From: a virus
Length of the DNA: 64,000 nt
Virus record (IMG/VR): IMGVR_UViG_3300010354_000079
Location: 1 to 64,000 of that record
Strand: one strand, 5' to 3'
Positions 3,828 through 59,219 of this stretch are shown one piece after another (the stretch's first letter is position 1; each line of letters starts with the position of its first letter). The notes below the pieces were generated by a model. It ran no database searches. It saw nothing but the letters and a program-made list of their open reading frames with translations, and was not told the DNA's origin. The position numbers and the translations under genes were made by a program.

Positions 3828-4457
3828 TTAAACAATGAGAGAGTTAGGAATAAATTTCTGACTCCTCCAGTGCTTACCCGTCTGAACATGTCCCTCTCGA
3901 ACAAACTTCGCAACAGAGGTTCCGAAGTCGTCATAGTGGAAAGACTGGGCGTATCGAACTACATACCCTTCGACTTTTGTTGTGTCCAGGGAATTTGCGA
4001 TTTCCCGAATCTTCTTCTCGTTCCACTCTCCATTGTATAGGACAGGGACAGAGCAGATTCCCAGCATCGAGAAAAAGTCCTGGGTATCTTCCCAGGAAAG
4101 TGCACAGTTCCTTTCATCCCAAACGCTAAACCCGTAAAAATACGACTTCAGGTCTGAGTAGGAAATACTGTGACGAGCCCACAGATTCTCTCCGCAAATA
4201 CGCCAACCGACTGGAATCTCGTGACGAATCTGAGCCCAGAACTGTTTCACCCAGGCCCGGTCCTCTCCGCCTTTGCTATCGAGGCTGCGAGCATGGATGT
4301 GGTCGCTATACAAGGTTGTATTCTCTCCGTCCATTTTCTCGGTTACAACAACCGTGCGACCCACAAAACTTTGAACGCTCGAAAGGACTTTGTCGTCACT
4401 CGTGACTGCCTCCGACCAGGGCAGGTGGAAGGTTCGAGGGTATTTTACGTGAGCCAT
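3828..4457 (-). CDS. ATP-dependent RNA ligase (PF09414-like, small)
   Basis: KYPRTFHLPWS and EKMDGEN (KxDG nucleotidyltransferase motif I); start trimmed to MAHVKY because cassette E2 lies inside the ORF-track N-extension. Confidence 0.6.
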   Translation of the reverse strand: MAHVKYPRTFHLPWSEAVTSDDKVLSSVQSFVGRTVVVTEKMDGENTTLYSDHIHARSLDSKGGEDRAWVKQFWAQIRHEIPVGWRICGENLWARHSISYSDLKSYFYGFSVWDERNCALSWEDTQDFFSMLGICSVPVLYNGEWNEKKIREIANSLDTTKVEGYVVRYAQSFHYDDFGTSVAKFVREGHVQTGKHWRSQKFIPNSLIV

Positions 4458-4479
4458 CTCTCGAGCACCTGAACGTAAC

Positions 4480-4526
4480 CTACTATAGGGCCATCCCCGA
4501 AACGCGTAAAGGGCGGGTTCCCGCCC
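4480..4526 (-). promoter_or_regulatory. cassette E2 (type A palindrome GGGCGGGAACCCGCCC + TTTACG + TATAGT)
   Basis: TATAGT 24 nt upstream of RNA ligase ATG. Confidence 0.5.
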
Positions 4527-4608
4527 TCTCCAGGATCGCTCCAGGGGAGCCATCTGTTTTGGTAACCCATTGGGCCACCCCACCCGAGAGCCCGCCTTTC
4601 CGGACTCC

Positions 4609-14974: not shown

Positions 14975-14992
14975 ACCTTCTTAATTAGTTTA

Positions 14993-15082
14993 TAGGCGCC
15001 TAGGGAATCGAACCCTAACTAGCCGGTAATCTGCCGGAGCGGTCCTTATAGGGGACCCTGTGCTACCTTACACCAGACGCCC
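14993..15082 (-). tRNA. atypical type-II tRNA-like gene (anticodon loop CCUAUAA)
   Basis: 7-bp acceptor stem GGGCGUC/GGCGCCU (2 G-U), D-arm GUGU-AAGGUA-GCAC, anticodon stem GGUCC/GGACC, long variable hairpin CCGG-CAGAUUA-CCGG, T-arm UAGGG-UUCGAUU-CCCUA; two nt between D and anticodon stems and C at position 33 are non-canonical. Confidence 0.45.
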
Positions 15083-15108
15083 AAATCAAAGGGCCAAAAG
15101 GCCCTCAA

Positions 15109-20110: not shown

Positions 20111-20159
20111 TCTGCAGTCTAGGGCACTGACCTAAGCTTAGGGTTAAGCTGATATGAAC

Positions 20160-20272
20160 GGAACCGGCAGGACTCGAACCTGCAACCTCTCCTTTAACCT
20201 AGGGATTTGTACTGCTGATGTATCTTTGACAAGATAGCTTTATAGCGCTCTATCCAGTTGAGCTACGGTTCC
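20160..20272 (-). ncRNA. elongated tRNA-like gene f (~113 nt)
   Basis: acceptor GGAACCG/CGGUUCC, D-arm GCUC-AACUGGAUA-GAGC, T-arm GCAGG-UUCGAGU-CCUGC, with ~45-nt insert containing hairpin UAUCUU-GUCA-AAGAUA and CAGCAG. Confidence 0.5.
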
Positions 20273-20527: not shown

Positions 20528-20546
20528 TCTTTGTTTTGCAAAGAAC

Positions 20547-20663
20547 GCCAAAATCAGGAATCGAACCTGAGCTACCTCCTGAACATGGATTATTGGAGAT
20601 TGCTGTCCGGACCTTATACAAGGTCACCGATTTTTAAGCGTGCTACCACTACACTATTTTGGC
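20547..20663 (-). ncRNA. elongated tRNA-like gene c (~117 nt)
   Basis: perfect acceptor GCCAAAA/UUUUGGC, U8A9, D-arm GUGU-AGUGGUA-GCAC, T-arm UCAGG-UUCGAUU-CCUGA; insert has hairpin GACCUU-GUAU-AAGGUC then GGUCCGGACAGCAA. Confidence 0.5.
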
Positions 20664-20766: not shown

Positions 20767-20789
20767 TGAAATTTCCGTCTAACGGAAAT

Positions 20790-20904
20790 TGGGGAAGAAG
20801 GAATCGAACCTCCATCACGTCCGCATGAATGGAATTTGTGTAATTGCTGTCTGTATCTTACCAAGATAACTGAATTACGTGTGCTACCATTGCACCATTC
20901 CCCG
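20790..20904 (-). ncRNA. elongated tRNA-like gene a (~115 nt; C1-A72 mismatch)
   Basis: acceptor CGGGGAA/UUCCCC(A), U8G9, D-arm GUGC-AAUGGUA-GCAC, T-arm GGAGG-UUCGAUU-CCUUC; insert has hairpin UAUCUU-GGUA-AGAUA then CAGACAGCAA. Confidence 0.45.
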
Positions 20905-21131: not shown

Positions 21132-22595
21132 TCAGTTTGAGAAGACGGAGCCGATGGCGTCGTAACGCTCGGTGTAAACTGTATCCTTCATAGTATCGAT
21201 CGGTGTAACAACCTTGCCGGTGAGCAGAGACTTCAGGGTAGAAGGGCTGCAACCGGAGACTAGGCAGGTTCCCGTGTCGTGCATCTTCATCGGAACGTTC
21301 TCGTAGGAATTCACATTCCAGAACACAAGCTCAGGCATCGAGTATCCCGCTTGGGCGTACTTGATACGGATAGCTTCGAAGTTCGTAACGGAAGCTCCAG
21401 AGCAGCACCGGTCAAACTGCATGTCAGAGACAATAATCAGCTTGCGAGGCATGTCACTCTCGGGAACACTGTTCTTGACCGCTGTGTTCAGCACAAGGTT
21501 GAATACCGCTTGCAAGTCCGTATTCATCTGCCAAGCGGCCTGCGACAGATTCCGAATGCGAGAAGCAATCGTAGCTCCGGTCACGGTCTGCAACTCAGGG
21601 CAAGACGAGAAGGTCAGAAACTTATCCTTCCAGATTCCTGTGTTTCTCTCAGAGATGTACATCGCCAGAGAGATGGAAACTGCCATCGGCGTTCCCCTCA
21701 TGGAACCTGAAACGTCCGCAACAACCAGTCCATTAAACTCTTGACCATCCATGTAGTTCGGCAGAGCCTCCCACATCAGGTTGAGAGTTTGATCGTTGGT
21801 CTCACGTCCAGTTAAATACTTGTCTACGATTTCATAGGGGTACAACGTTCCTGCGTTAATCTTGGCCTCGCCCTTCTCAACCGAGTTGAGGTAGGCTTGG
21901 TAGCGATCTCCGTCACGTTTGGCGAAAGCCTTACGGTACATGAAGCCAGCCCGTGAAGGAAGCTTGCTGTAATCAATTCTTTCCCACTCACGAGCGCACA
22001 TCGCTTGTTCAACGATGCGAATCCTCGTTCGCAGGGCAGCCAGAGCTTTACGGTACTCCCTCGCATTCCAACCCATGGTTGCGGCAATCTTTCGGCCAAG
22101 CCTCCTGGAGTTCTTGCTGGAAGCGTTCACTGAGGGTAGCCACTTGGCTACCAGAGAAACAGGGTTTTCAACTTCGGTGTTCAAGTCAGCCGTAAGCTGA
22201 GCCTTGATCATGTTCAGAGCCGTGTCCCAAACAAGGGTGTTCTCCAGGGAGAGAAGGTCGTCCCAGCGACCGTATTCGGGAATGAGGGAAACCAGCTTGG
22301 CTCCGATGGTAGCATCGCTGCGGACCAGTTCTTGGAACAATTCTCGGAAGATCTTACGCTCTCCTTGACCACCACGAATGTCACGAGCCCAAAAGAGAAT
22401 GCGCGTTGCCGTTTCGGGATCTTCGGCAAACGCTAAGCTGAACAGCTTCATGGCTTGGGCAACGTCATTGCGGCAAGCGGCAATTTTTCCAAACAAGTCC
22501 AGGCACCGAGAACCGGTGGACTTGTAAGCTTTTGCCCCATTGACAGTTGTGGTAGTATTCAATTCGTTTTCGAGTGCGTTCAAAAAAGTTGTCAT
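21132..22595 (-). CDS. Ro60-like RNA-binding protein (TROVE/DUF2828-like module + vWA with MIDAS)
   Basis: C-terminal GLVVADVSGSMRG (DxSxS MIDAS, cf. my recollection of Ro60 DVSASM); N-module PEYGRWDDLLSLEN resembles Ro60 GWSHKDLLRLSH; start trimmed to MTTFLNALENEL. Confidence 0.55.
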   Translation of the reverse strand: MTTFLNALENELNTTTTVNGAKAYKSTGSRCLDLFGKIAACRNDVAQAMKLFSLAFAEDPETATRILFWARDIRGGQGERKIFRELFQELVRSDATIGAKLVSLIPEYGRWDDLLSLENTLVWDTALNMIKAQLTADLNTEVENPVSLVAKWLPSVNASSKNSRRLGRKIAATMGWNAREYRKALAALRTRIRIVEQAMCAREWERIDYSKLPSRAGFMYRKAFAKRDGDRYQAYLNSVEKGEAKINAGTLYPYEIVDKYLTGRETNDQTLNLMWEALPNYMDGQEFNGLVVADVSGSMRGTPMAVSISLAMYISERNTGIWKDKFLTFSSCPELQTVTGATIASRIRNLSQAAWQMNTDLQAVFNLVLNTAVKNSVPESDMPRKLIIVSDMQFDRCCSGASVTNFEAIRIKYAQAGYSMPELVFWNVNSYENVPMKMHDTGTCLVSGCSPSTLKSLLTGKVVTPIDTMKDTVYTERYDAIGSVFSN

Positions 22596-22762
22596 TTTCT
22601 TTCGTCCAAGTTGATTGTTCTTTTTCAAATACAAGGCTGGATCAACTTTGTATAACGGTAGTTTTGTCGGTACAGTGACGTTTGTATTTGGAGTACAATG
22701 TTCTACTGAACCACCGTTCAAAGACAGCATAGTGCGGCTACCCTGGCAGTAAACTCTGCCTC

Positions 22763-23236
22763 TTACCAAGAGGCCTGGTATACAAAGCCCCAGTTCCAGT
22801 TATCTTTGAAATCCTCGTGCGCAAGAATCTTCTCGAGTTTCGCCGAAGTGTATTCGAGTTGGTAGTAATAGTATTCGTCGTAGTCTGTGGAGCCAAAGAA
22901 AAAGCCGGATTTGGTAGGTAGAATGGCTTCTGGCCCCTCGCCAGGTTTATTTTGGGTTTCAAGCGCTAACCTACAGCGAGTCAGGAGATTCTCCAGATCT
23001 TCTCGAGAAACGTGGATATCCTCGCAGTTGTCCTCACCGTCGCCTAAACTGACAAAGTAATTGTGAATCTGATTGGCTTTGCGCCAGTAAACGATTTCCA
23101 CTCGCGTACGAGCAGTTGGGGCGTTATGATGGATAAGACCCGTAAGGCCGAGGCTTTCAGTGATTTTTTCGAACTCCTCTCTATTATCTGAAAGAGATAG
23201 AAATTTTTCTGCAAAAAGGTAAGAGTCAAGTCCCAT
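22763..23236 (-). CDS. hypothetical protein (157 aa)
   Basis: ORF track. Confidence 0.4.
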   Translation of the reverse strand: MGLDSYLFAEKFLSLSDNREEFEKITESLGLTGLIHHNAPTARTRVEIVYWRKANQIHNYFVSLGDGEDNCEDIHVSREDLENLLTRCRLALETQNKPGEGPEAILPTKSGFFFGSTDYDEYYYYQLEYTSAKLEKILAHEDFKDNWNWGFVYQASW

Positions 23237-27173: not shown

Positions 27174-27539
27174 CTAAGGTTTGTCACCAAAAAGGTCTTT
27201 AAACCTTGAGTTAATAACTTTCCTGAGAGCCTCAGGGTCTACTCGAATTTTTCGCAGGTGATCCCATGCGTGATCATCGTCAAGGAGGGCCTTAACAACC
27301 TCTCTCTCTTTTTCAACCATCAGCTTCCACCTAGAGTCGGCAGTCTTGGAGAGAGACTCTGCGATATCTTTGTTGTGTTTATCTGTTTCAGGGTCTGCCC
27401 CAACTGAAGGAAATCTTACTTCCCCGTCTGCTCTCTCCCACAAGTCCCATGTTTTAAGGTAAGTTGCCACCTTGTCTAGGTTGATTTCACTATCTGGAGC
27501 TAAATTGTCGTTTGTCATTTTCCAGTTTTCAGCAACCAT
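27174..27539 (-). CDS. hypothetical protein (121 aa)
   Basis: ORF track. Confidence 0.4.
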   Translation of the reverse strand: MVAENWKMTNDNLAPDSEINLDKVATYLKTWDLWERADGEVRFPSVGADPETDKHNKDIAESLSKTADSRWKLMVEKEREVVKALLDDDHAWDHLRKIRVDPEALRKVINSRFKDLFGDKP

Positions 27540-28600
27540 TGATTACTAATTGCCTTGAAGGTGAAGTCAGAGTCGCAAGACTTGAAGACTACTCCTTCGC
27601 GCTTCACCTCAGGGTTAAGGGAAGGACCATCTGCGAAAGATAGCAGGCTTTCCACATTGGCAAAGGACTGCCTTAGGCCATAGCAATGCTCAAGGATGGG
27701 AACGTGAGTTACGTCCGCCCCAAGAGGAACCAGTTCATTCTCAAGCAGGTCGAAACGGGGACTCGGCTTCAGGTGGGATTGAGCGTCGATGTCGAAAACA
27801 TCAAACAGAAAGAACCTTTGACCCTTGACCCTTTCCTGGTTTCCCTGGATTCCTTCGCCAATCAACTCACCCTGAAGGGCAATGTTGCGACCCGTTTTTT
27901 CGTAGAAGGTAATCAGAGCGTCAAGAATGCCTTGATCCCGCGCAGCTTTCCAAAAGCTGTTGGTATCGGATTCCTTCAGGTCAAGATTGCGGCTGCAAAC
28001 GCCTACAACCCCATCCTTCACATAGATCGTGCAAGAGGAACCATCCAGCTTGATGGTAATCTCATAGCCTTCATCCACGTGATCCTGGAAGATTTCCTTT
28101 GCCAGATTTTGGCAACGTTCCTGATCCGTCTTCGGAATCCAGCTTGGGAAGTTTCCGCGAACTTGACCTGCCAGACATGCGGGGATCGGGGCCTCCCACT
28201 TTTGGACTCCAAGAAATTCAGTCAGGTCGTCGCCTTCCTGAAGACCCCTCTCAAAAGCGGTAACATGGTAGCTGAAGTCCAGGTTAAGCTTGAGGGAGAT
28301 AGGCAACAGCAAGCCCTGGCTAACTTGGCCGCGAAGCTTGACGGTCTTGAGGCGTTCGCCCTTCACCCCGTTGTACTCGCGCGGCTCCTTGCCCTTACTC
28401 AAAAACGGAGCGAGCTCGTGGGGGACCCAGCTATCAATTTCAAGGTAGAGTGCCAGGTTGCCCACGGTAAATTCACCCTTCTTCACAACCACGGGCCAGC
28501 CACCTCCAACAATAGCGCATTCAATGGCATCAGCGTCCGGAATGGGGCGAATTTCGGTGATTTGCTTGATGGAAGCAAGTTTTCGAGTTGTTTCAGTCAT
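27515..28600 (-). CDS. ATP-dependent RNA ligase (PF09414-like, large form)
   Basis: ITIKLDGSS (KxDG motif I) with downstream nucleotidyltransferase-like motifs; 361 aa. Confidence 0.55.
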   Translation of the reverse strand: MTETTRKLASIKQITEIRPIPDADAIECAIVGGGWPVVVKKGEFTVGNLALYLEIDSWVPHELAPFLSKGKEPREYNGVKGERLKTVKLRGQVSQGLLLPISLKLNLDFSYHVTAFERGLQEGDDLTEFLGVQKWEAPIPACLAGQVRGNFPSWIPKTDQERCQNLAKEIFQDHVDEGYEITIKLDGSSCTIYVKDGVVGVCSRNLDLKESDTNSFWKAARDQGILDALITFYEKTGRNIALQGELIGEGIQGNQERVKGQRFFLFDVFDIDAQSHLKPSPRFDLLENELVPLGADVTHVPILEHCYGLRQSFANVESLLSFADGPSLNPEVKREGVVFKSCDSDFTFKAISNQWLLKTGK

Positions 28601-35674: not shown

Positions 35675-36772
35675 TCAGGCAATCCCCAGGAGGGCATCCA
35701 GCTTCTTCGGAGACAAGCCTTCCAGCCATTCACCAAAGGTGCCAACCTTGCCAGCGCGAAGCGTGAAGCAAGCGTTTGACAACCCCTTGGACTCAGCCAG
35801 AACAGCCTGAGCGAACTCCTTTTGGTTCAGATGGTTGTGGGCTTCCATCATCGAATCCACAGCAGCTTCCATCATATCAATGGAACGCAGGTGGACATCA
35901 AACCGCTCACGGTACTCAGGGAAGTGAAGCAGAAACTCTTCCAGGTCGTCGTTGAGAAACAACTCGGAGAAGTCCGGATCGCCATTACCGCGAACGCGGT
36001 GGAGCTGGCAATATACATCACTCTTGACCTTTGCGCGTCCGCGACCGTCCGACAGAATGAAACCTTCGTGATCAGCGCCACGACCATTCACGGCAGATTC
36101 GACAGCGGCGAGGTCGCCGAAATCGTAAGACCGAGCCAGGTTGAAGTCCGGTGCGAAAAACTCCAGATTCAGCTCTTCGAAGTCGATCTTCCGATCGCGA
36201 ACCGCCAACAGCGGCAGCTGGGGCTCTTCGTACTCCACGACGATTCGGTTGTCCTTGTGGCACAGTTCAAAGACGTAGCACAAGTTTGGATCCAGAACGT
36301 TACGTGAGTAACCAACTTCGTCGAAGACAGCCCAGAACAGATCCGCGAAAGAGCGACCGGTGGTACCTACTTCCGAAGCCCCAGCGACGGAGCCGGAAGT
36401 AGAGACAATCCAATCATTCTTGTAGTGGAATAACTTGATCAAGGACCCGTCGTACTTCTCGTAGACCTTGGTACGCGACCAATCCAACTCGTGGCAGTAA
36501 CCCTCGCCAACGTTGAAAAAACGATCGAACGCATACGCAACCAAGCGGTAGTACGGCGAGTGGTCACCATCGTTATCTACACGCTCGACAACGGCACCAC
36601 GGCAAGCCCGAACCAAGGGGTCGGCCTTGTCAGTCATGACGGATCCGTACTTCAGATTAAACAGATTCGGGTAGCGCTCGTCGCGAGCCACGCGAATGTC
36701 GCGCTCAGCTAAAGCACCAAAGTCATACCGGTCGTTCAACCAGTCGATCAGGTAGTGGCGGAGGTTTTCCAT
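35675..36772 (-). CDS. RNA ligase 2 (Rnl2)-family ATP-dependent RNA ligase
   Basis: VYEKYDGSLIKLF (KxDGS motif I); start trimmed to MENLRHY, 6 nt after TATAGT-like element of cassette E13. Confidence 0.65.
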   Translation of the reverse strand: MENLRHYLIDWLNDRYDFGALAERDIRVARDERYPNLFNLKYGSVMTDKADPLVRACRGAVVERVDNDGDHSPYYRLVAYAFDRFFNVGEGYCHELDWSRTKVYEKYDGSLIKLFHYKNDWIVSTSGSVAGASEVGTTGRSFADLFWAVFDEVGYSRNVLDPNLCYVFELCHKDNRIVVEYEEPQLPLLAVRDRKIDFEELNLEFFAPDFNLARSYDFGDLAAVESAVNGRGADHEGFILSDGRGRAKVKSDVYCQLHRVRGNGDPDFSELFLNDDLEEFLLHFPEYRERFDVHLRSIDMMEAAVDSMMEAHNHLNQKEFAQAVLAESKGLSNACFTLRAGKVGTFGEWLEGLSPKKLDALLGIA

Positions 36773-36846
36773 ATATATAACTATAGCGCTTTCGCGAGCG
36801 GAAGCAAAGGGGGGTAAACCGGCTTTCAAGGTACGGTTAACCGCCC
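36773..36846 (-). promoter_or_regulatory. cassette E13 (type B; TATAGT, ATG +6-7)
   Basis: GGGCGGTTAACCG...CCGGTTTACCCCCCTTTGC...TATAGTtatatatATG. Confidence 0.55.
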
Positions 36847-40855: not shown

Positions 40856-42349
40856 TCACTGAAGAATTCGCTTGCGAATCAATGAGACGGTATCGGAGTA
40901 GTGATAAAGAACCACACTATTCATGAAAATAGTACGCAGTTGCCCTCGGCTCTCTTCATTCCTGGTCTGCCGTTCGTAAAGAACAAAGTCTGAACCTTCC
41001 TTCTCAACTCGCAGAAGCCCTTGTGCCGACTTCTTGGTTCCCCGGTCAGTGATAGGGTCCTTCATGACCTCAACCGGTTTCCCGTTGATTTGAGCCCAAG
41101 TTGTCTTGAAAGCGATTCCAAATGTGTCCCGTGTATGGTACTGGTAGGTGTAGGAACCGACTCCGAAGACGACGTTTCCGCTCGCCCAACCATGTCGAGC
41201 CATATTCTCGAGAATCGACAAAGCCCTTGAGAGAGTTATCGAGTCTCCGTAGATCAAGCCAACTCTAGGATTAAGGCAACGGAAACCTTTCTCGTTAATC
41301 GTTCCACCAAACAAATCCCACAGAAGCTGAAGGGACCCTTTGTGGGCAGGGCTCCCAGGCTCAGCCTCAGGGTCTCCGCAGAGGATCTTCTCAGGGTCAC
41401 CGCTATCGGGCCGGAAGACCACCTTGGCGAGGCCCAGGGCGTCCGGCTGGCGATCCAGAATGGCCCCCTTGAGCTGGGCCGCAATGTTGGTCAGGACGTT
41501 CCAGTAATCCCAAGTGTCGCTCACGATACTTACGATTCCGCTAGGGTAAGTCTCGGAAATCAGGCGCCGATAGGTCTCAATTTCCGTGTCTTTTCCGCCT
41601 GTGCACATCACACTGTGTTCAGTGGCTGGAACGCCTCCTGCAATGAATTCTCCTTCAGTGTCGTAGTAGTCGTCAAGGAAGTCGATCGCGGGAATGTTGT
41701 CAGTCCCCTTGAAGCAGAACAAGTGCCCGATTCCGTGGGCAGCCGAGTCATAAACGCCTCCCACACCTCGAAGCGAGAAGTCATGTGCCTGAAAGTCTAC
41801 GAAAGACTTATCAGTTCCCGTAAGTTCTGCGAACTTATCCAACAAGCGTCGGAACTCGTAAGCGATAGTCGCATTGTTAACAACCTTCCAGATCTCCGCA
41901 GAAAGAGCACTCTCGACGTAGTTTGTCACCCAGTAGAAATCTGGATGCGTGTTTTCCAGAGTGAGGAAAGGTACTCGAAGATTTACTCGACTTCCTTCAG
42001 GAAGAGCCTTTAGCCGAATTGGAAGGTAACCAAGGTCGTGAAGAGCGCCAAGATGCTCAAGTCCGACTGCCCCTTCTCCGAGGGCTGTATCCATTCTCCT
42101 CTTGTACTTTGCGAGAACTCTTTCTTTCGGTTTCCGAAAGAACGTCTCGTTCCAGAGATCTCGGAGATACCAAGTTGCTGTCCCAAGAACTCCTGCAACC
42201 ACGATTTTGTGGTCAAAGTCGGGAAGCATTTTAGCAAGGCGGTCAGAACGAGCTGTCGCATTGGTGTAAATGTACTCCGTTCCTTCGGGGTACTGGCGAT
42301 AGTGACCCGTTTTGTAAAAGTCGGTAGTGTCGGGGGCGAAAAGTTTCAT
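40856..42349 (-). CDS. nadV: nicotinamide phosphoribosyltransferase
   Basis: full-length (~497 aa) similarity pattern to NAMPT (YKTGHYRQYP..., GxGSYTYQY...). Confidence 0.8.
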   Translation of the reverse strand: MKLFAPDTTDFYKTGHYRQYPEGTEYIYTNATARSDRLAKMLPDFDHKIVVAGVLGTATWYLRDLWNETFFRKPKERVLAKYKRRMDTALGEGAVGLEHLGALHDLGYLPIRLKALPEGSRVNLRVPFLTLENTHPDFYWVTNYVESALSAEIWKVVNNATIAYEFRRLLDKFAELTGTDKSFVDFQAHDFSLRGVGGVYDSAAHGIGHLFCFKGTDNIPAIDFLDDYYDTEGEFIAGGVPATEHSVMCTGGKDTEIETYRRLISETYPSGIVSIVSDTWDYWNVLTNIAAQLKGAILDRQPDALGLAKVVFRPDSGDPEKILCGDPEAEPGSPAHKGSLQLLWDLFGGTINEKGFRCLNPRVGLIYGDSITLSRALSILENMARHGWASGNVVFGVGSYTYQYHTRDTFGIAFKTTWAQINGKPVEVMKDPITDRGTKKSAQGLLRVEKEGSDFVLYERQTRNEESRGQLRTIFMNSVVLYHYSDTVSLIRKRILQ

Positions 42350-42352
42350 TGT

Positions 42353-43270
42353 CTAAGCGGCACTGCGAAGGTAGGAAACGTTCTGAGGAATGGCGTCGTA
42401 GAATGAATTGTTGGGAAGAAGATTTGCAACGTAGAAGGTGTCGATCAGATTGTCGAAAACCTCAAAACTCTTTGAGAAAATCCCGTGAGTGACATAAAGG
42501 TCGATTCGAGAAGGATTGTGTTTACGAAGAACTTTTGCCAGCTCAACAAAGGTTCTACCACCATCGCAGATATCATCCACAATCAAAAGGGGCTTTCCTG
42601 CGTAGGATACTTCAGTGGGAACATCGGTTCTCAGGATTTGCCCATTCTCAGGGTTTCTGACTTTGGTCGCATAAACCACTGAGCTGAGACCGAGTTCTTT
42701 CTGAGCCAAGGTAGCACGCTCAACGGCACCTTTGTCAGGGGCAATCACGATTGTGTCGGAGGGAAACCTCGCTCCCCCTCGGCAAAAGTCTCGAAGAAGG
42801 GAGTCTGGCTTGACGTTGAACAACGTGCAACCTTCCTCTCGGAAAAGACTGGAAGCGACTGGGCTATGCGCATCCCAAGTTATGACTTTATCGCTTACAC
42901 TGAGGTATGGCGCCAAAGCCTTCACAAAGACAGACAGGGAGAAAGCTTCCCCTTCGACACAAGCTCGGTCTTGCCTACTATACGGGAGATACGGGAGTAT
43001 AAGCTCTATTTCACACGTAATGGGTAGGCGACAGAGGGCGTCAAGGGTGAGCAGAAGTTCGACAAATGATCCGCTATCATGAATGTCTGCGTTGACAATC
43101 ACTTTCTCGAGCTTGGGGATAGTGTTCAATCGGACTTGAGTCTCCCCCGCACTAAAATGAAAAGAGGAATTTTTAAGGATTCCGATTCCGTCAGGGGTAA
43201 TTCCCATGATTTCAATCGGCTTCCTCTTTCGAAGGCTGATCATTTCGTCGCTCTTAATCAAGACTTTCAC
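42353..43270 (-). CDS. prs: ribose-phosphate pyrophosphokinase (PRPP synthetase)
   Basis: LLIVDDICDGGRT PRPP-binding motif; FSAGETQVRL N-domain; directly downstream of nadV; GTG start. Confidence 0.75.
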   Translation of the reverse strand: MKVLIKSDEMISLRKRKPIEIMGITPDGIGILKNSSFHFSAGETQVRLNTIPKLEKVIVNADIHDSGSFVELLLTLDALCRLPITCEIELILPYLPYSRQDRACVEGEAFSLSVFVKALAPYLSVSDKVITWDAHSPVASSLFREEGCTLFNVKPDSLLRDFCRGGARFPSDTIVIAPDKGAVERATLAQKELGLSSVVYATKVRNPENGQILRTDVPTEVSYAGKPLLIVDDICDGGRTFVELAKVLRKHNPSRIDLYVTHGIFSKSFEVFDNLIDTFYVANLLPNNSFYDAIPQNVSYLRSAA

Positions 43271-50779: not shown

Positions 50780-51175
50780 TTAAGCGGAGGATAAGGGGGA
50801 GAAGATTTCCTGTTTCGCAAGCTCGGGGTCAACATTCGGAACAAACCCTTCAGCGCACATTCGAAGGTAAGCGACTCCCCAAGGTACCCCGTCTTTCTTA
50901 GAGAGAAGAGAAGCGTAAAGAATGTATCCAGGGACGAGCAAAGATGCGAACCTTTGACACCACTCGTCACCAGCATATTGCTTCTGCCTTTCCATTGCTA
51001 AGCCCTCTGTAAACTCCCTGTAATCGGAATCGCTCTCGATTACAACATTGTTCAAATCAGGGGAGACTACTCCGTACTTGCTAATCAAGGCTTTTAAATC
51101 TTGTATGCTTGTGCAAGAATCAAGTTCCTTCTTGTAATCAGAGTCCAAATCTGAATCGTACGTGACCCGCAACAT
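50780..51175 (-). CDS. hypothetical protein (131 aa)
   Basis: ORF track; start right after GC hairpin + TTTCAA. Confidence 0.35.
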   Translation of the reverse strand: MLRVTYDSDLDSDYKKELDSCTSIQDLKALISKYGVVSPDLNNVVIESDSDYREFTEGLAMERQKQYAGDEWCQRFASLLVPGYILYASLLSKKDGVPWGVAYLRMCAEGFVPNVDPELAKQEIFSPLSSA

Positions 51176-51195
51176 TTTGTTTTTGAGTGGTTGAA

Positions 51196-51216
51196 AGGGG
51201 GGCCGAAGCCCCCCGA
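51196..51216 (-). terminator. GC hairpin + U tract at the 3' end of the tmRNA coding piece
   Basis: CGGGGGGCUUCGGCCCCCC-UUUC. Confidence 0.45.
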
Positions 51217-51445
51217 GTGAGTCAGAGTGCGTTGCTCAAACGGCAACCGCAGTCCTCTCAAATTTGACGATTTTGTTAGCGTCTATTTTGTGCTTATGCA
51301 AGCGGCTTTCACTTAGGTGACAATTTCGCCCCGTCGAAACCTTTGCAGCCCCGTGAGAGCCCCGAAGGGCGGAGGCAAAAGTGGAACTGAACGGACTCGA
51401 ACCGTTGTCCGAAGCGGCGTCCTCCCAAGCTACACCTAGTTTAGA
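51205..51445 (-). ncRNA. ssrA: two-piece (circularly permuted) tmRNA gene
   Basis: acceptor piece ...CUUCGGACAACGGUUCGAGUCCGUU-CAGUUCC-A (T-arm + 3' acceptor strand) lies upstream of coding piece GGGGCUGCAAAGGUUUCGACGGGG... (5' acceptor strand pairs with CAGUUCC via 2 G-U); resume context AAAAUAGAC-GCU AAC AAA AUC GUC AAA UUU GAG AGG ACU GCG GUU GCC GUU UGA gives tag ANKIVKFERTAVAV; ends with GC hairpin GGGGGGCUUCGGCCCCCC-UUUC. Confidence 0.6.
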
Positions 51446-51467
51446 GTCTTACGGTAGGACTGTAAAA

Positions 51468-51674
51468 TCAGATTGTTTCGAAACTAAGACCACTTGATTC
51501 TGTGGACCAGACACTGACTCTAAGCTTCACGCCTGAAGGAAATTCAAGAAGAACATTTTCTGAAAAGCCGCAAACATCTTTGTAGGAGTAAGAGATAATG
51601 TCTCCGGACTCTACCAGCTTGTCCAGGTCTTCATCAGAGAGGTTTTCCACGTTGTTTGTGAGAGAAGGTGTCAT
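51468..51674 (-). CDS. hypothetical protein (68 aa)
   Basis: ORF track. Confidence 0.3.
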   Translation of the reverse strand: MTPSLTNNVENLSDEDLDKLVESGDIISYSYKDVCGFSENVLLEFPSGVKLRVSVWSTESSGLSFETI

Positions 51675-51988: not shown

Positions 51989-52267
51989 TCAGAGTCCAAG
52001 GTTTTCGAGTTCCTCTTGGGAGAGCCTTTTGTTTTCAGCCCTCCTTCGCTTCGGGTGAAGAACCTTATCACTATGGCAAACTTTACATCTTGGGTTGCCG
52101 CAGTCTAAGGGGTCACTGGACATTGCCCTACCGAAGCAATACATCTCAATATAGGAGGGACTAAAGTCGAGACTCCCTAAAAGTTTTTTCCAGTTTTTGT
52201 GGAGTCTTTCGGTGTGGTGCCTTCGAATTGCTGCTTTTGCCATATCAGGAAAACTGTCCGGAGTCAA
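51989..52267 (-). CDS. hypothetical Cys-containing protein (92 aa)
   Basis: ORF track. Confidence 0.35.
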   Translation of the reverse strand: MTPDSFPDMAKAAIRRHHTERLHKNWKKLLGSLDFSPSYIEMYCFGRAMSSDPLDCGNPRCKVCHSDKVLHPKRRRAENKRLSQEELENLGL

Positions 52268-53144
52268 CCCACTCAGCTTTAATTAAAGACCACCAGTCGG
52301 AAGTTAGCCCAGAGAGAACGTACTGGTAAGGGAGCCAACCGTAACCACTTTGCCCCCAAGAGGTCCCCCAAGAGTTTCGAATCAGTAATGCCCCGGTAGT
52401 CTGGGTTCCCCCGATGATTGAGTTGGTAATCTTTTTGTTATCGTCGTATCCCATCACAGAAACTGCGTGACCGCCAAGACTAGACTCGTTTCTGGTTGGA
52501 AAAGGGAGGTGTCCCCCATTTGATCCAGCCTGCAAATATGAACTAAAAACTGTAAACCCGAACATTACAGGGAGGCCCTTTGAGAGGTTGGTCTTGATTT
52601 GGGTCAGAAGGACACTGTTGGAAATCCCCGGAGTATCAAGGCGATAGTATGATAGGGTTTGAAAATTTTGAGCAAAAGAGTATAGAAAAGCCGATGGCTC
52701 TTCGTCAAAAAGAGTAATGTCATAGGGGTAGTAGGACTCTGGGGGAACACCAAACAAAGTCAAAGCACCCATTACGCTTCTCAGGTACGCTCCAGTATCC
52801 CCGGTAACCTGCATTAGGTTTCGTGTCGTCTTGTATAGGAATAAACGAGAGCCATCGATGTGTTTTCCGAAAGCCTTTCGCTCAAAGTACTCAAGAATTC
52901 CGATTGCTGCGTGAGCGGTGCAAGAGCCGATTTCCCCTTGGTCTTCTATCGGAGAGCAAAACTGACGCAAGTCTGTTGTTGCCGGTAGGGTAACTCTGGA
53001 TGCTGCCCCTATAGGAGAAACAGCTCCCAATTTCAAAAGCATTGAGTTTATCGATGGTTTCTTAGCCGAAGCTGCTTCAGTGGATACTCCGTAATCACGA
53101 AAGTCGGGGAGATCCCTAACCCACCCGAAACATCTTTTTGTCAT
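52245..53144 (-). CDS. papain-family (C1) cysteine peptidase
   Basis: QGEIGSCTAHA (Q...CxAxx), GGHAVSVMGYDD (His), NSWGTSWGQSGYGW (Asn-Ser-Trp). Confidence 0.65.
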   Translation of the reverse strand: MTKRCFGWVRDLPDFRDYGVSTEAASAKKPSINSMLLKLGAVSPIGAASRVTLPATTDLRQFCSPIEDQGEIGSCTAHAAIGILEYFERKAFGKHIDGSRLFLYKTTRNLMQVTGDTGAYLRSVMGALTLFGVPPESYYPYDITLFDEEPSAFLYSFAQNFQTLSYYRLDTPGISNSVLLTQIKTNLSKGLPVMFGFTVFSSYLQAGSNGGHLPFPTRNESSLGGHAVSVMGYDDNKKITNSIIGGTQTTGALLIRNSWGTSWGQSGYGWLPYQYVLSGLTSDWWSLIKAEWVDSGQFS

Positions 53145-55922: not shown

Positions 55923-56153
55923 TTACCGAGGAAGGATTCGAAGGACTGACAGGGCTAACAGAATAACTATTACAAAAACGAATCCTATCCACCAAACAGG
56001 ATCCGTAGGAAGACCGCGAGTTTGAAGAACTCCGTCTACAAAGTGATGGTGGATTGCGACGATAGCTAGAGCCACACAAAGTGACACAAAAGCCATACGA
56101 CCGAGAACAATGAACGACACTATGAGAGCTAAGGATTCCATAAAATTACTCAA
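55923..56153 (-). CDS. small membrane protein (paralog of 1616..1849)
   Basis: see 1616..1849. Confidence 0.45.
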   Translation of the reverse strand: MSNFMESLALIVSFIVLGRMAFVSLCVALAIVAIHHHFVDGVLQTRGLPTDPVWWIGFVFVIVILLALSVLRILPR

Positions 56154-58089
56154 AGATTACCCAAGCGGGTGTGTTAGAAGGGGAAAAGTGCAGGGGCCCA
56201 AGTCTAACTCCTCGAAAGACTGCCACCCTTTCAGGAACTCCGCTTTTCCAAGATAAGAAAGTAGTGTTACCAAAAACAGTAGTCTGATAGTTTCCGGGGA
56301 CGAGACGAACCTTGTCTTGAGCGGGATTGAAGTCGGTTATCATTGCGTAATCTGATATACCCGACGTTCTATTGGAGCCATCGTTATAGAAAACGTACGG
56401 GACACCATTTCTCCTCTGACCAAGACGAAATACGTCGTTCCCTGAACCACCCGTAAGGGTGTCAATCTTTCCTTTTCCGAGGGTTAATAGACTTGTTCCC
56501 GTTGCGGGAATCCCTGCAATGTAATCGACTCCACTTGTCCCAGTAATAGAGTCGTTCGAGCTGGTCCCCCATATCACGGATATACCGGGACCGGGATAAT
56601 TGTCCCCGAGTTGGGAAAGCATCGCGGTTATGTTTAGTCTCCCCCTGGAAGAGACTTTTCCGACAAGTGAAGTCGTAGGGGATGAAGTAGATAGGGCCAC
56701 TTGGGAAACCTCTCTTTTTCCAGCGGCAGGGAATGAAGACTTCGCCAAAGCAAGAGCGCCCATCACATGGGGTGTCGCCATCGAAGTTCCACTTAGGCTG
56801 GTGTAGGTATTTCCGGGTGCCGTAGACTGGATTCCCCCTCCGGGAGCTCCAATCTTAACAACAGGGGAGCCAAAGTTGGAGAACCAAGACAGATTCCCGT
56901 TCGGGTCAATCGAGGCCACAGGGAGAACAGCTTCCCAACCCGCGGAGCTCAGGGTGGAATAACTCGCAGGGTAGAACGGAATTGAGACTATATTTGTCGA
57001 GGAATTTCCAGCGGCTGCGACAAAATGGATATTCTTAAGAGCAGCGTTATTGATCGCAGTCTCAAGCATCGAGAGGGCTCCCCCTCCTCCCCAGGAGTTA
57101 TTTGTTCCAAGGTAAGTGGCGGGGGAAGTGGGGGAAAACTCTTTATCGTTCAGGAAAGCAACACCTGTGAAGTAGTCGACAGCGAGTGCCCCATCCGAAC
57201 TCCATCCAGACCCCTCAAAGCTCAGAAATTTTAACGGAACTATCAAAACGTTCCAATTCACCCCTGCTACTCCCACCCCATTACCACCGATTCCACCGAT
57301 CGTCCCGGCAACGTGAGTCCCGTGGTAGTGATCATCCATGGGGTCGTTGTCCCCATTCACCCAGTCCCAACCGATTAGGTCATCGACGTATCCGTTTCCG
57401 TCATTGTCAAGCCCGTCCTCCCATCGAGAATCTGAAAGCAGATCGGCAGCATCAATCCTCCCATTTTCATTGAAGTCCGTGACGTACGTGGAGTTCGCGG
57501 GCTGGTTCAAGTCACGAAAAGTGATAAGACCGTCAGCGTCAGTGTCTGCGAGAGAAGAATAAAAACTCAGTGTCTTGATCTCCCCAGGGTTCAGCCAAAT
57601 GTTTAAGTACAGGTCGGGGTGTGTGTGATCCACTCCTGTGTCGATAACCCCTACAACAACTTTTGTACTCCCAACGTAGCCTTGGGACCAGGCCCGCTCC
57701 GCTTGCGATCCATAAACATTTGTTGTGTTTGGTGGCCCAGAGTTTGGAGAGTCGTTTGAGTACATACCCCAGAGATTTCCCTGGGTGTAAATGGTATCAT
57801 TACTAACTTCCTCTATGGAAACTCTTGAGTCTTGCTCTACATTGAGAATGTTCGGATCTCGCTTCAGGGTCTCGATCGTCTTGTTTAGGTCCGTTCCCGT
57901 TGGCAAAACAAAACGTCGAAAGGTAGAGTTTCCGATACGAAAATCGTTCTTTCCAAGTTTCAAAGGGGAAGAACGAGAAGGGGGTTTTGTTGTGATGATT
58001 ATACGCTTCTCTTCAACAGCCCCAGCCGTTGTCCCAAAAAGAAATACGGACGCGAGAAAAGCTAAGGAGAGGCTGGAAAAACGAGTCAC
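56146..58089 (-). CDS. subtilisin-like (S8) serine peptidase with C-terminal RTX-like Ca-binding repeats; secreted
   Basis: signal peptide; VGVIDTGVDHTHPDL (Asp), HGTHVAGTIGG (His), GTSMATPHVMG (Ser); GGSGNDVF repeats. Confidence 0.75.
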   Translation of the reverse strand: MTRFSSLSLAFLASVFLFGTTAGAVEEKRIIITTKPPSRSSPLKLGKNDFRIGNSTFRRFVLPTGTDLNKTIETLKRDPNILNVEQDSRVSIEEVSNDTIYTQGNLWGMYSNDSPNSGPPNTTNVYGSQAERAWSQGYVGSTKVVVGVIDTGVDHTHPDLYLNIWLNPGEIKTLSFYSSLADTDADGLITFRDLNQPANSTYVTDFNENGRIDAADLLSDSRWEDGLDNDGNGYVDDLIGWDWVNGDNDPMDDHYHGTHVAGTIGGIGGNGVGVAGVNWNVLIVPLKFLSFEGSGWSSDGALAVDYFTGVAFLNDKEFSPTSPATYLGTNNSWGGGGALSMLETAINNAALKNIHFVAAAGNSSTNIVSIPFYPASYSTLSSAGWEAVLPVASIDPNGNLSWFSNFGSPVVKIGAPGGGIQSTAPGNTYTSLSGTSMATPHVMGALALAKSSFPAAGKREVSQVALSTSSPTTSLVGKVSSRGRLNITAMLSQLGDNYPGPGISVIWGTSSNDSITGTSGVDYIAGIPATGTSLLTLGKGKIDTLTGGSGNDVFRLGQRRNGVPYVFYNDGSNRTSGISDYAMITDFNPAQDKVRLVPGNYQTTVFGNTTFLSWKSGVPERVAVFRGVRLGPLHFSPSNTPAWVIFE

Positions 58090-58127: not shown

Positions 58128-59219
58128 TTAGGTCATAAAGCCGATTGTTTTTGAGTCTTTTTTCTGAGTGTACGATTGCTTGTTAAACAGCTCAGCTAGA
58201 GAGATACTCTGCTCAGGAAGATCAAGCTGGAATCCGCGCTTCTCAGCCACCACTTCAGCCTGCTTTCGTGAGAGAGGCTTAAAGTCCAGAACGTCGAAGC
58301 AGCGGCCTGGTCGAACCAGAGCTTCATCAATTTTATCAAGGCTCAGATTCGTGGTGAGAATAATCTTCTTTTCTGGCTTTGACACGATTCCGTCCCCAAG
58401 ACTAAGAAACTTGTTAACTACAGTGTTTCCCTCGTCGCGCCTTGTAAGAAACGCGTCCGCATCTTCAAGAATAAAGTAGTCGGAAGTCCCCTGAAGGAAA
58501 CTTACGAAAAAAGAGTCCTCCTTGATCAAATCGGAGTCAAAGGTCATTAGGGCTTTCACGTCTAAGTGAAGAAGCATTCCTCGAATGAACGAAGATTTTC
58601 CCGTTCCGTGAGGGCCACGTAGAAGAAGGAGAGAGGAAGAAGAGTTGTGAAAACGCTCGTAATATTCGTGAAGAGTTTCCCCGTTTAGGAAGGGGTACAT
58701 CTCCGTGAAAGGGCGATTCTCTGGTCGGATCTCTACTGATTGGCCTCGCGCCGTCGCTGTACTCTTGTTATAGAAGTAGAGTTCGAGAGTCTTCTTCGAA
58801 AAGTCATTCTTTTTGATTTTGAAAAACTTGCTTATAACTTCCTCAAGTTTATCAAATAAAGTTTCGTCTCCATAAAGAGTAACAACGCTGCGTGTTATTG
58901 AAAGACTTAAAAAGAGGCGATCGCAATACAGTTGTAGATACCTTCCAAAACAATGTGCTAAAGACTCACAAAGAGTGAGTTTTTGAATTTCTTCCCGCAG
59001 GGTGTCTAAAACTCGATTCAGGTCTATTGTGTAATCATTCTCGAAGTACAGAATACGGCTGTGAATGGCCTCTTTCCTGGAGTCAAAATCGGCAACCAAA
59101 CAGTTGAGGTAATGAACGGAAAAAGTTCTATCGTCGTCTGTCCTGGTGGCTTCTACATAAGTTATTAAAGAACCAAAAGGGCCTACTGGATGTGAGTCTT
59201 GAGTCATCAGTCGTGGCAA
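58128..59219 (-). CDS. AAA+ ATPase (BCS1-like)
   Basis: LLLRGPHGTGKSSF Walker A, ILEDADAF Walker B, RPGR sensor. Confidence 0.65.
   Translation of the reverse strand: MPRLMTQDSHPVGPFGSLITYVEATRTDDDRTFSVHYLNCLVADFDSRKEAIHSRILYFENDYTIDLNRVLDTLREEIQKLTLCESLAHCFGRYLQLYCDRLFLSLSITRSVVTLYGDETLFDKLEEVISKFFKIKKNDFSKKTLELYFYNKSTATARGQSVEIRPENRPFTEMYPFLNGETLHEYYERFHNSSSSLLLLRGPHGTGKSSFIRGMLLHLDVKALMTFDSDLIKEDSFFVSFLQGTSDYFILEDADAFLTRRDEGNTVVNKFLSLGDGIVSKPEKKIILTTNLSLDKIDEALVRPGRCFDVLDFKPLSRKQAEVVAEKRGFQLDLPEQSISLAELFNKQSYTQKKDSKTIGFMT

Follow-up and report, generated by a model that had tools for sequence, protein, structure and literature searches.

Introduction

The first transfer-messenger RNAs (tmRNAs) known from phages were those of the Bxz1-like mycobacteriophages (PMC4131195), and the tmRNA database of 2025 holds 79 phage sequences (PMC11915505). 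Two-piece tmRNAs were found by Buchholz et al. (2022) in 53 cases among 18,146 phage genomes, with 50 of them from marine or aquatic phages, and Table S1 of these authors lists S-CBWM1, S-CAM1, S-CAM3, S-CRM01, S-SSM7 and the marine virus AG-345-P14 as ‘Permuted’. Here we describe a two-piece (circularly permuted) tmRNA gene on the minus strand of a viral DNA stretch of 64,000 nucleotides (positions 1 to 64,000 of IMG/VR virus record IMGVR_UViG_3300010354_000079), to which we refer in its full length as the window. Our comparisons confirm that this tmRNA is real, complete and of the picocyanobacterial (marine/freshwater) type, and that it resides in the genome of an uncultivated large phage. 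We consider it very likely that the gene encodes a functional two-piece tmRNA of the phage. It is of an already known kind, permuted tmRNAs having previously been catalogued in cyanophages; new are this copy and the phage lineage carrying it. A preliminary description, made from the sequence alone, had called the presence of such a gene in a phage-like genome unusual, which is correct for phages overall in view of the counts given above but not for cyanophages, whose permuted tmRNAs were tabulated in 2022.

The two-piece tmRNA of the hosts Prochlorococcus, Synechococcus and Cyanobium (Rfam RF01851; the ‘third lineage’ of permuted tmRNA) shares with the window RNA (i) the permuted order, (ii) the GGGGCUG acceptor strand with its G3:U pair, (iii) the T arm, the GGAC/GGUUUCGAC elements and helix 2a, (iv) a hairpin replacing pseudoknot 1, (v) a CCA end that is not encoded, and (vi) a distance of 75 nt between GGUUUCGAC and the fifth tag codon, together with the tag start ANKIV.F.R. 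In contrast, the window tag comprises 14 residues and ends in -TAVAV, where the host tag comprises 16 and ends in -PVAA, and the stop codon of the window lies in the loop of helix 5, unlike in the host model. The 5' hairpin is cut to 4 bp with a conserved CUACC loop, and an extra conserved segment, UAGGUG-UAGCUU, is present when compared with the host. Furthermore, the 3' helix/pseudoknot region of RF01851 (GGAGAUGGGG...CCUUAUCACCC; 37 model positions) is replaced by 6 nt in the window. This region is also absent in the viral copies L030, L214, L027 and others, whereas S-CBWM1 and all hosts possess it. The window tmRNA is thus a minimal form without the 3' pseudoknot region, and it occurs in a new phage lineage.

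Phage-borne tmRNAs of other lineages or gene forms are also known. Pelagiphages and the methylophage Melnitz, like the window phage, encode a permuted tmRNA, which in these marine or aquatic myophages has been proposed to serve ribosome rescue or protein recycling (PMC9004378); their RNA belongs, however, to the alpha lineage of permuted tmRNAs, and some copies are accompanied by a glutamine riboswitch. No riboswitch of Rfam matched the window at gathering score. The ssrA genes of Bxz1-like mycobacteriophages and of DS6A are likewise phage-borne, yet non-permuted and with actinobacterial tags, DS6A being devoid of a tag frame (PMC4131195).

Identification of the permuted tmRNA gene

ARAGORN reports a permuted tmRNA (‘tmRNA*’) with the tag ANKIVKFERTAVAV on the minus strand at 51145-51471. 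The Rfam model tmRNA_permuted (RF04321) is matched over its whole length (1-213) at 82 bits (gathering score 47; E 3.6e-14), and the model cyano_tmRNA (RF01851) is matched over model positions 1-288 with an E value of 1.7e-18. ARAGORN and Rfam searches, which had been proposed as a check and are independent of each other, thus both yielded matches and, far above what chance would give, uphold the claim of a permuted tmRNA of cyanobacterial type. The conserved unit extends on the minus strand from a 5' leader hairpin at about 51461 to a 3' terminal hairpin ending at 51197, and the interval 51205-51445 delineated previously spans its core; every sequence element quoted for it was located on that strand. 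The acceptor piece (the 3' tRNA-like half) comes first in the gene and is followed by a spacer and the coding piece (the 5' half with the tag), which is the permuted order.

Minimum free energy folding gave no useful information on the 251-nt region (z = -1.5) and failed to reproduce the tRNA-like domain, so that we turned to comparative analysis. Relatives were gathered with the degenerate pattern GGTTTCGAC-N40-65-GCNAAYAANATYGT, which yielded 92 stretches in viral contigs and at least 120 in bacterial genomes, nearly all of the latter, among the matches listed, from Prochlorococcus, Synechococcus, Cyanobium or Vulcanococcus. ARAGORN called permuted tmRNAs in 86 viral and at least 114 genomic loci. 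The pattern demanded GGUUUCGAC and an ANN/KIV tag start; tag codons 1-5 are therefore fixed by construction and carry no weight below. Alignment A1 comprises 53 non-redundant sequences (the window, 40 viral and 12 host). A second search gave closer relatives, namely L214, L215, L216, L217, L218, L029 and L030, and alignment A2 comprises seven window-type sequences (the window, L214, L215, L217, L218, L030 and S-CBWM1), with L216 and L029 left out.

Conservation of the tRNA-like domain and of the two-piece layout

The tRNA-like domain is assembled from both pieces. On the acceptor piece, the 5' strand of helix 2a, CGCUUCG (51410..51416), is followed by GAC and the T arm AACGG-UUCGAGU-CCGUU (51390..51409), in which the GGAC and UUC.A columns are invariant in A1, and the piece ends with the acceptor 3' strand CAGUUCC and the discriminator A (51382..51389); T arm and acceptor strand together read AACGGUUCGAGUCCGUU-CAGUUCC-A (51406-51382). 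The coding piece begins with GGGGCUGCAAAGGUUUCGACGGGG from 51352, its first seven nucleotides GGGGCUG (51346..51352; G1-G3 invariant) being the acceptor 5' strand, and continues with the D-loop analogue CAAAGGUUUCGA and the 3' strand of helix 2a, CGGGGCG (together 51327..51345, the helix strand at 51327-51333). The element GGUUUCGAC is invariant in A1, being part of the search pattern. There is no anticodon arm, and the T loop is tRNA-like. After the discriminator A, CCA is not encoded (the next bases are CUU), as in the hosts.

The pairing of GGGGCUG with CAGUUCC, which had been proposed at the outset, comprises 7 bp including G3:U and G4:U wobbles. In A1 this acceptor stem is paired to 100%, with compensatory changes at three pairs, and eight distinct compensated versions occur among the viral copies; the stem is hence kept and covarying in homologues. 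The G3:U pair, the alanine identity element, is found in 53/53 sequences, the window included. The T stem is likewise 100% paired with compensatory change at 5/5 pairs (A1), and helix 2a is 96% paired in A1 and 100% paired in A2, where 7/7 pairs have changed on both sides. Taken together, the 20 pairs of helix 2a, T stem and acceptor stem are 98.4% paired in A1, and 13 of them exhibit double changes. None of 500 shuffles reached this pairing and covariation, and sliding the partner strand by 1-3 columns reduced pairing to about 50%. Across A2, eight helices are 95% paired with 19 doubly changed pairs.

Outside this domain, the unit opens with the 17-nt leader hairpin AGUC-CUACCGUAA-GACU (51445..51461), which is present in 7/7 window-type sequences and shows compensatory changes at 2/4 pairs (U:A to C:G and A:U to C:G; GUC/GAC to GCC/GGC). 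It is a candidate counterpart of the 5' hairpin that precedes UAGGUG in the cyanobacterial model RF01851; the model pairs are mostly non-standard in the window, and the shorter 4-bp hairpin found there is conserved and covaries in window-type phages. The linker CUAAACUAGGUGUA (51431..51444) follows, of which AAAC-U-NGG-KG-UAG is invariant or nearly so in A2. As a consequence of the extra conserved UAGGUG segment, the outer P2 helix can be drawn in two mutually exclusive ways that the A2 data do not separate, with the 3' strand(s) of both contained in CACCUAAGU (51311..51319). We prefer the pairing of GCUUGGG (51424..51430) with CCUAAGU (51311-51317), a helix of 7 bp that is 93.9% paired in seven relatives with compensatory changes at two pairs; the alternative pairs AGGUG of the linker (51433-51437), a candidate 5' strand, with CACCU, and is 94% paired in relatives.

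Between the two pieces lies an intervening segment of 29 nt (51353..51381; measured from 51381 to 51353), in agreement with the roughly 30 nt first estimated, which contains a small GCCC-UUCG-GGGC hairpin and is presumed to be excised. Its sequence is not conserved, and its length in relatives is 6, 17, 29 or about 105 nt (about 105 in L215, L216 and L218), with medians of 6 nt for viral and 9.5 nt for host copies, while both flanks are conserved. An unconserved spacer between conserved flanks lends indirect support to the view that the precursor would be cleaved into two base-paired RNAs. At its other end the unit closes with the hairpin GGGGGGC-UUCG-GCCCCCC (51197..51214), which is 81% paired in relatives with partial compensation and is followed by only UUUC; the next open reading frame starts at 51175, 21 nt beyond. 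Given the lack of a U tract and the proximity of this frame, the RNA may be cut from a longer transcript.

Two candidate transcription signals were considered and rejected. A sigma-70-like TTTACA-17-TAAACT overlaps the conserved, covarying 5' hairpin, and its hexamers (chance expectation 0.04 per window) are not conserved in L214, L217 and S-CBWM1. The sequence GTCCTACC, considered as a repeated phage promoter motif, occurs only once in the window and hence belongs to the tmRNA unit.

The tag frame

The pre-resume hairpin GCUU-GCAU-AAGC (51292..51303) takes the place of pseudoknot 1 and matches the corresponding hairpin of RF01851; it is invariant in the window-type relatives and thus uninformative for covariation. 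The resume context ACAAAAUAGAC then leads to GCU AAC, and the tag frame of 45 nt runs from the GCU resume codon to UGA (51236..51280; 14 codons, ANKIVKFERTAVAV*, from ARAGORN and translation). The same or nearly the same tag is found in eight related loci, being identical in the metagenome contig L214 and the 201-kb viral contig L217 (both ANKIVKFERTAVAV) and near-identical in L029, L030 and L215-218, with ANKIVKFERAVVAV in L029 and L030 and ANNIVKFERIAVAV in L215, L216 and L218, which are contigs of up to 277 kb. The frame is kept among the relatives with synonymous variation, and hence none of the three outcomes named beforehand as refuting the tmRNA (no model match, no conserved acceptor helix, no conserved tag frame) was observed. 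Codons 7 (Phe) and 9 (Arg), which lie outside the search pattern, are invariant as amino acids in 36 distinct viral sequences, while their third positions vary and Arg alternates between CGN and AGG. This pattern of substitution indicates that the tag is selected as a peptide.

Much of the frame is embedded in helix 5, a long irregular hairpin (51222..51260; 92.5% paired) with an inner stem GUUGC/GCAAC, the stop codon in the loop of that stem, and a mid stem UGC/GCA. The inner stem covaries, reading GUAGC/GCUAU and GUGGC/GCCAC in relatives. A basal pairing of UUG-A-GAG, from the Phe-Glu-Arg codons, with CUCUGA was read by eye and is the counterpart of the host UCUCC/GGAGA stem.

The ending of the window tag, AVAV, is unlike the canonical ...(L/V)AA-COOH degron; being still hydrophobic, it may retain degron function. 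Among the matches listed, AA is the ending of 114 of 117 host calls, with evident miscalls making up the remaining three; the distinct host tags number 14, each with -AA and none with Val at the end. By comparison, Val stands at the end of 59 and AA at the end of 21 of the 86 viral calls, and the 34 distinct viral tags divide into 22 ending in Val, seven in -AA and five in TA or CA, where it is to be kept in mind that the pattern preselected ANN/KIV tags and that contigs from viruses do not represent independent samples. Tags with a Val ending occur across several viral clades, and the terminal Val codon varies (GTT, GTA, GTG). Since the terminal GUU of the window sits in a conserved RNA loop, a constraint at the RNA level on the tag ending is possible. 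Our literature search found no paper describing this contrast between host AA and viral Val endings, which may be reported elsewhere.

A reporter in Synechocystis is destabilised more strongly by an ssrA-type tag with the ending LVA than by tags with ASV or AAV (Huang et al. 2010, PMC2860132). By analogy, the degron is plausibly weakened, and not abolished, when the tag ends in Val. It is then tempting to speculate, albeit with some doubt, that cyanophage tmRNAs have been selected to write a non-host tag in which the ANN/KIV.F.R core is kept and ...PVAA-COOH is changed to ...(A/L)V-COOH. If so, ribosomes would be rescued, but their products would reach the ClpXP-type pathway of the host at a rate below normal, or another protease would be used.

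Relation to other cyanophage tmRNAs and to the hosts

Among phage isolates, the tmRNA region of S-CBWM1 (Aokuangvirus) is the sole DNA match to the window, with 68.7% identity. S-CBWM1 shares with the window the 5' hairpin with its CUACC loop, the linker, the pre-resume hairpin GCUUGCAUAAGCACAAAA, the layout and a few flanking proteins. Unlike in the window, its tmRNA has kept a 3' pseudoknot region like that of the hosts, reaches 123 bits with RF01851, carries the tag ANKIVAFHRQAVSCA and adjoins a tRNA array, and the remainder of its genome is not alignable to the window. In the GenBank record of S-CBWM1 (L001; MG450654, 23885-24202) the permuted tmRNA is not annotated, and a nicotinamide mononucleotide (NMN) adenylyltransferase is encoded near it. 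The same lack of annotation is observed for S-CRM01 (L219; HQ615693, about 88.0-88.6 kb; tag ANNVVKFRRTAVTSLVAAL), where the coding sequence of the ‘hypothetical protein’ g107 overlaps the 3' part of the tmRNA.

The T4-like cyanophages (S-CAM1, S-CAM3, S-CRM01, S-SSM7 and many IMG/VR contigs) possess a window-like tRNA-like domain, the ANN/KIV.F.R core and frequently a Val end. Their distance from GGUUUCGAC to the resume codon is, however, shorter (65-66 nt), the segment before the resume codon reads CUGUUGACGGGAC instead of forming a host-like hairpin, the 3' pseudoknot is mostly kept, and their clades are separate from that of the window. A blastn search of isolates with a query of the T4-like type found only S-CRM01 and AG-345-P14, and for contig L036 ARAGORN calls a permuted tmRNA with the tag ANTSDSAANNIVAFSRSTVAA. 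In most T4-like contigs (L002-L093) the tmRNA is located within a large tRNA array or at its border, frequently right beside tRNA-Ala, tRNA-Arg or tRNA-Thr, and a TATAAA/TATATA-like element precedes UUCAAGAGG by 6-7 nt. The window-type genes, unlike these array-embedded ones, are solitary, with protein genes on either side.

In a distance tree, L030 and S-CBWM1 form a group with the window, the other viral copies ending in ‘-AVAV’ join next, and the hosts form a separate clade. The nearest viral copy is at a distance of 0.20 and the nearest sampled host copy at 0.47, and judged from these distances the tmRNA gene of the window was not captured recently. The gene and those around it are, moreover, collinear with their counterparts in L214, L217 (201 kb), L215-218 and L030 at 40-88% amino-acid identity, and collinearity at such identities implies that the tmRNA is an old, fixed feature of this large uncultivated phage lineage. 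The window genome is that of a novel large phage, a distant relative of S-CBWM1 that shares synteny with IMG/VR contigs 201-277 kb in length. Its host is very probably a picocyanobacterium. The suggestion that the RNA points to the host lineage therefore stands at the level of the Prochlorococcus/Synechococcus/Cyanobium clade but does not extend to the genus, the RNA being closer to viral than to host copies, and we name none.

Evaluation of alternative explanations

Several observations weigh against a functional phage tmRNA of cyanobacterial type. The margin on RF01851 is narrow (76 bits against a gathering score of 70), the 3' helix known from the hosts is missing, and 4 bp are left of the 5' hairpin. 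The T loop of L217 (1370-1643) reads GGCAGUA and not UUCGANU, though every helix is kept there by compensatory change, and L215 (2192-2539), L216 and L218 carry UAC/GGUCUCGCU in place of GAC/GGUUUCGAC; given such odd tRNA-like domains, some members of the lineage may lack full activity. The locus offers no convincing promoter or terminator: a terminator scan called none, and the 3' hairpin lacks a U tract. The search for SmpB, discussed below, covered 64 kb of the phage genome. A literature search turned up no expression, processing, charging or tagging data for this or any other cyanophage tmRNA, and what we say of the gain for the phage and of the effect of a Val-ending tag is inferred.

The absence of the pseudoknot-bearing 3' region lends itself to two other explanations. 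The RNA might act as a decoy that mainly titrates host SmpB, AlaRS or EF-Tu and so blocks trans-translation of the host without rescuing ribosomes. A molecule resembling the tRNA-like domain (TLD) strongly inhibits tmRNA, mycobacteriophage DS6A carries a TLD-only gene proposed to function in this manner (PMC4131195), and the window encodes no SmpB. A decoy has, however, no need of a tag frame, whereas frame, resume context and helix 5 architecture are conserved here, with synonymous substitutions and compensated pairs; we thus regard this role as improbable. Alternatively, the gene might be a non-functional passenger, that is, a decaying copy of a host ssrA acquired by recombination or by imprecise excision from an integration site in a tmRNA gene. 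Such genes are common integration sites and their fragments occur in prophages (PMC9004378), and it is the 3' part of the host gene that is missing in the window. Yet the gene is complete for every element that function requires, all helices have been maintained through compensatory change, the syntenic position is kept in phages whose proteins have diverged to the identities given above, the RNA is more than twice as distant from the nearest sampled host gene as from viral copies, and no integrase was noticed nearby. Decay of a captured copy is therefore very improbable.

Finally, an RNA of cyanobacterial type could signify that the window is a piece of cyanobacterial chromosome or a prophage border and that the gene is the host's own ssrA. 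The 114 correctly called host tags among the matches listed end in ...AA and the corresponding RNAs keep the 3' helix, and the window does neither. The window has no megablast match to known phages, carries phage-family genes, has its genes on one strand at a G+C content of about 48% and is collinear with viral contigs of IMG/VR, which renders a host origin of the stretch exceedingly improbable. We thus retain the functional phage-encoded tmRNA as our interpretation.

Genomic setting

All large open reading frames of the window are on one strand. A megablast search with 20 kb of the window against 50,697 phage records gave no match, a neighbouring protein of 524 residues had no match in tblastn, an exact-protein look-up yielded no record, and the six nearest of ten open reading frames scanned around the tmRNA were without PHROG match. 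The surmise of a phage context is nonetheless borne out by PHROG matches, by T4-type RNA ligases and by the collinearity with viral contigs of IMG/VR that reach 277 kb. The window also encodes a Tet/JBP oxygenase and a 5'-3' exonuclease.

The three RNA ligase genes are located on the minus strand at 35675-36829, 27515-28600 and 3828-4583, one being of the T4 Rnl1 type (PF09511) and two belonging to PF09414. A TROVE/Ro60-like gene (21132-22769, minus strand; phrog_850, DUF2828/DUF7788) has its best matches in the Synechococcus phages B3 and B23, and just downstream of it lie three tandem tRNA-like RNAs (20159-20272, 20546-20663 and 20789-20904, minus strand), which score 42-46 bits on the Rfam tRNA model, have the anticodon arm replaced by 53-58 nt and are not called by ARAGORN. 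There is also a weak YrlA match (20.8 bits against a gathering score of 69). By their arrangement, the TROVE gene and the tRNA-like RNAs resemble a Ro/Y-RNA module of the phage, in which the three RNAs would be Y-RNA-like mimics of tRNA. At 14992-15083 (minus strand) ARAGORN calls a 92-nt tRNA-Ile(UAU) that has no gathering-level match to the Rfam tRNA model; the call may be spurious, or the tRNA may be atypical or contain an intron.

Upstream of the tmRNA, at a distance of 1-8 kb, we find a papain-family C1 peptidase (52245-53144), a subtilase of family S8 (56146-58089) and an AAA ATPase (58128-59219), all on the minus strand; L214 and L217, which are syntenic with the window, lack the C1 peptidase at this place, and to link the peptidases to the unusual tag is pure speculation. 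An adjacent pair of genes for NAMPT (40856-42349) and a PRPP-synthetase-like protein (42353-43270; both on the minus strand) constitutes a nicotinamide adenine dinucleotide (NAD) salvage pair, the proteins being 69-82% identical to those of L030 and L217.

Proposed mechanism and implications

Following established tmRNA biology, from which we infer the individual steps, the locus would be transcribed as a single precursor, host RNase P would cut 5' of G51352, and the 29-nt spacer would be trimmed off after the discriminator A51382. CCA would then be added by the CCA-adding enzyme of the host, the two pieces being held together via the acceptor stem and helix 2, and alanine would be attached by host AlaRS. 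Together with SmpB and EF-Tu of the host, the charged RNA would enter ribosomes stalled during infection on broken or stop-less mRNAs, free them, and append the 14-residue ANKIVKFERTAVAV to the product. A homologue of SmpB was not found in the 64-kb window with a query validated as SmpB, so that the host protein would be needed. The likely benefit is that the ribosome pool would stay available while RNAs are degraded or attacked, and the Val-ending tag would probably make the tagged products a weaker or different protease substrate when compared with the host ...PVAA tag.

Such a benefit fits the RNA-maintenance genes of the window, that is, the three RNA ligases, the Ro60-like protein with the Y-RNA-like mimics, and the tRNAs. 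Together with the tmRNA, these genes suggest a toolkit for RNA repair and maintenance of translation, which would sustain translation while RNA is cut. For annotation, it is of note that the permuted tmRNA gene is missing from the GenBank records of both S-CBWM1 and S-CRM01. For the biology of these phages, the tmRNA gene ties an uncultivated lineage of large phages, with relatives of 200-277 kb, to picocyanobacterial hosts. Moreover, if the contrast between viral and host tags is real, the phages alter the fate of the rescued proteins, and if the tag has indeed been selected to differ from that of the host, the phage tmRNA would represent re-programmed trans-translation and not simply an extra copy.

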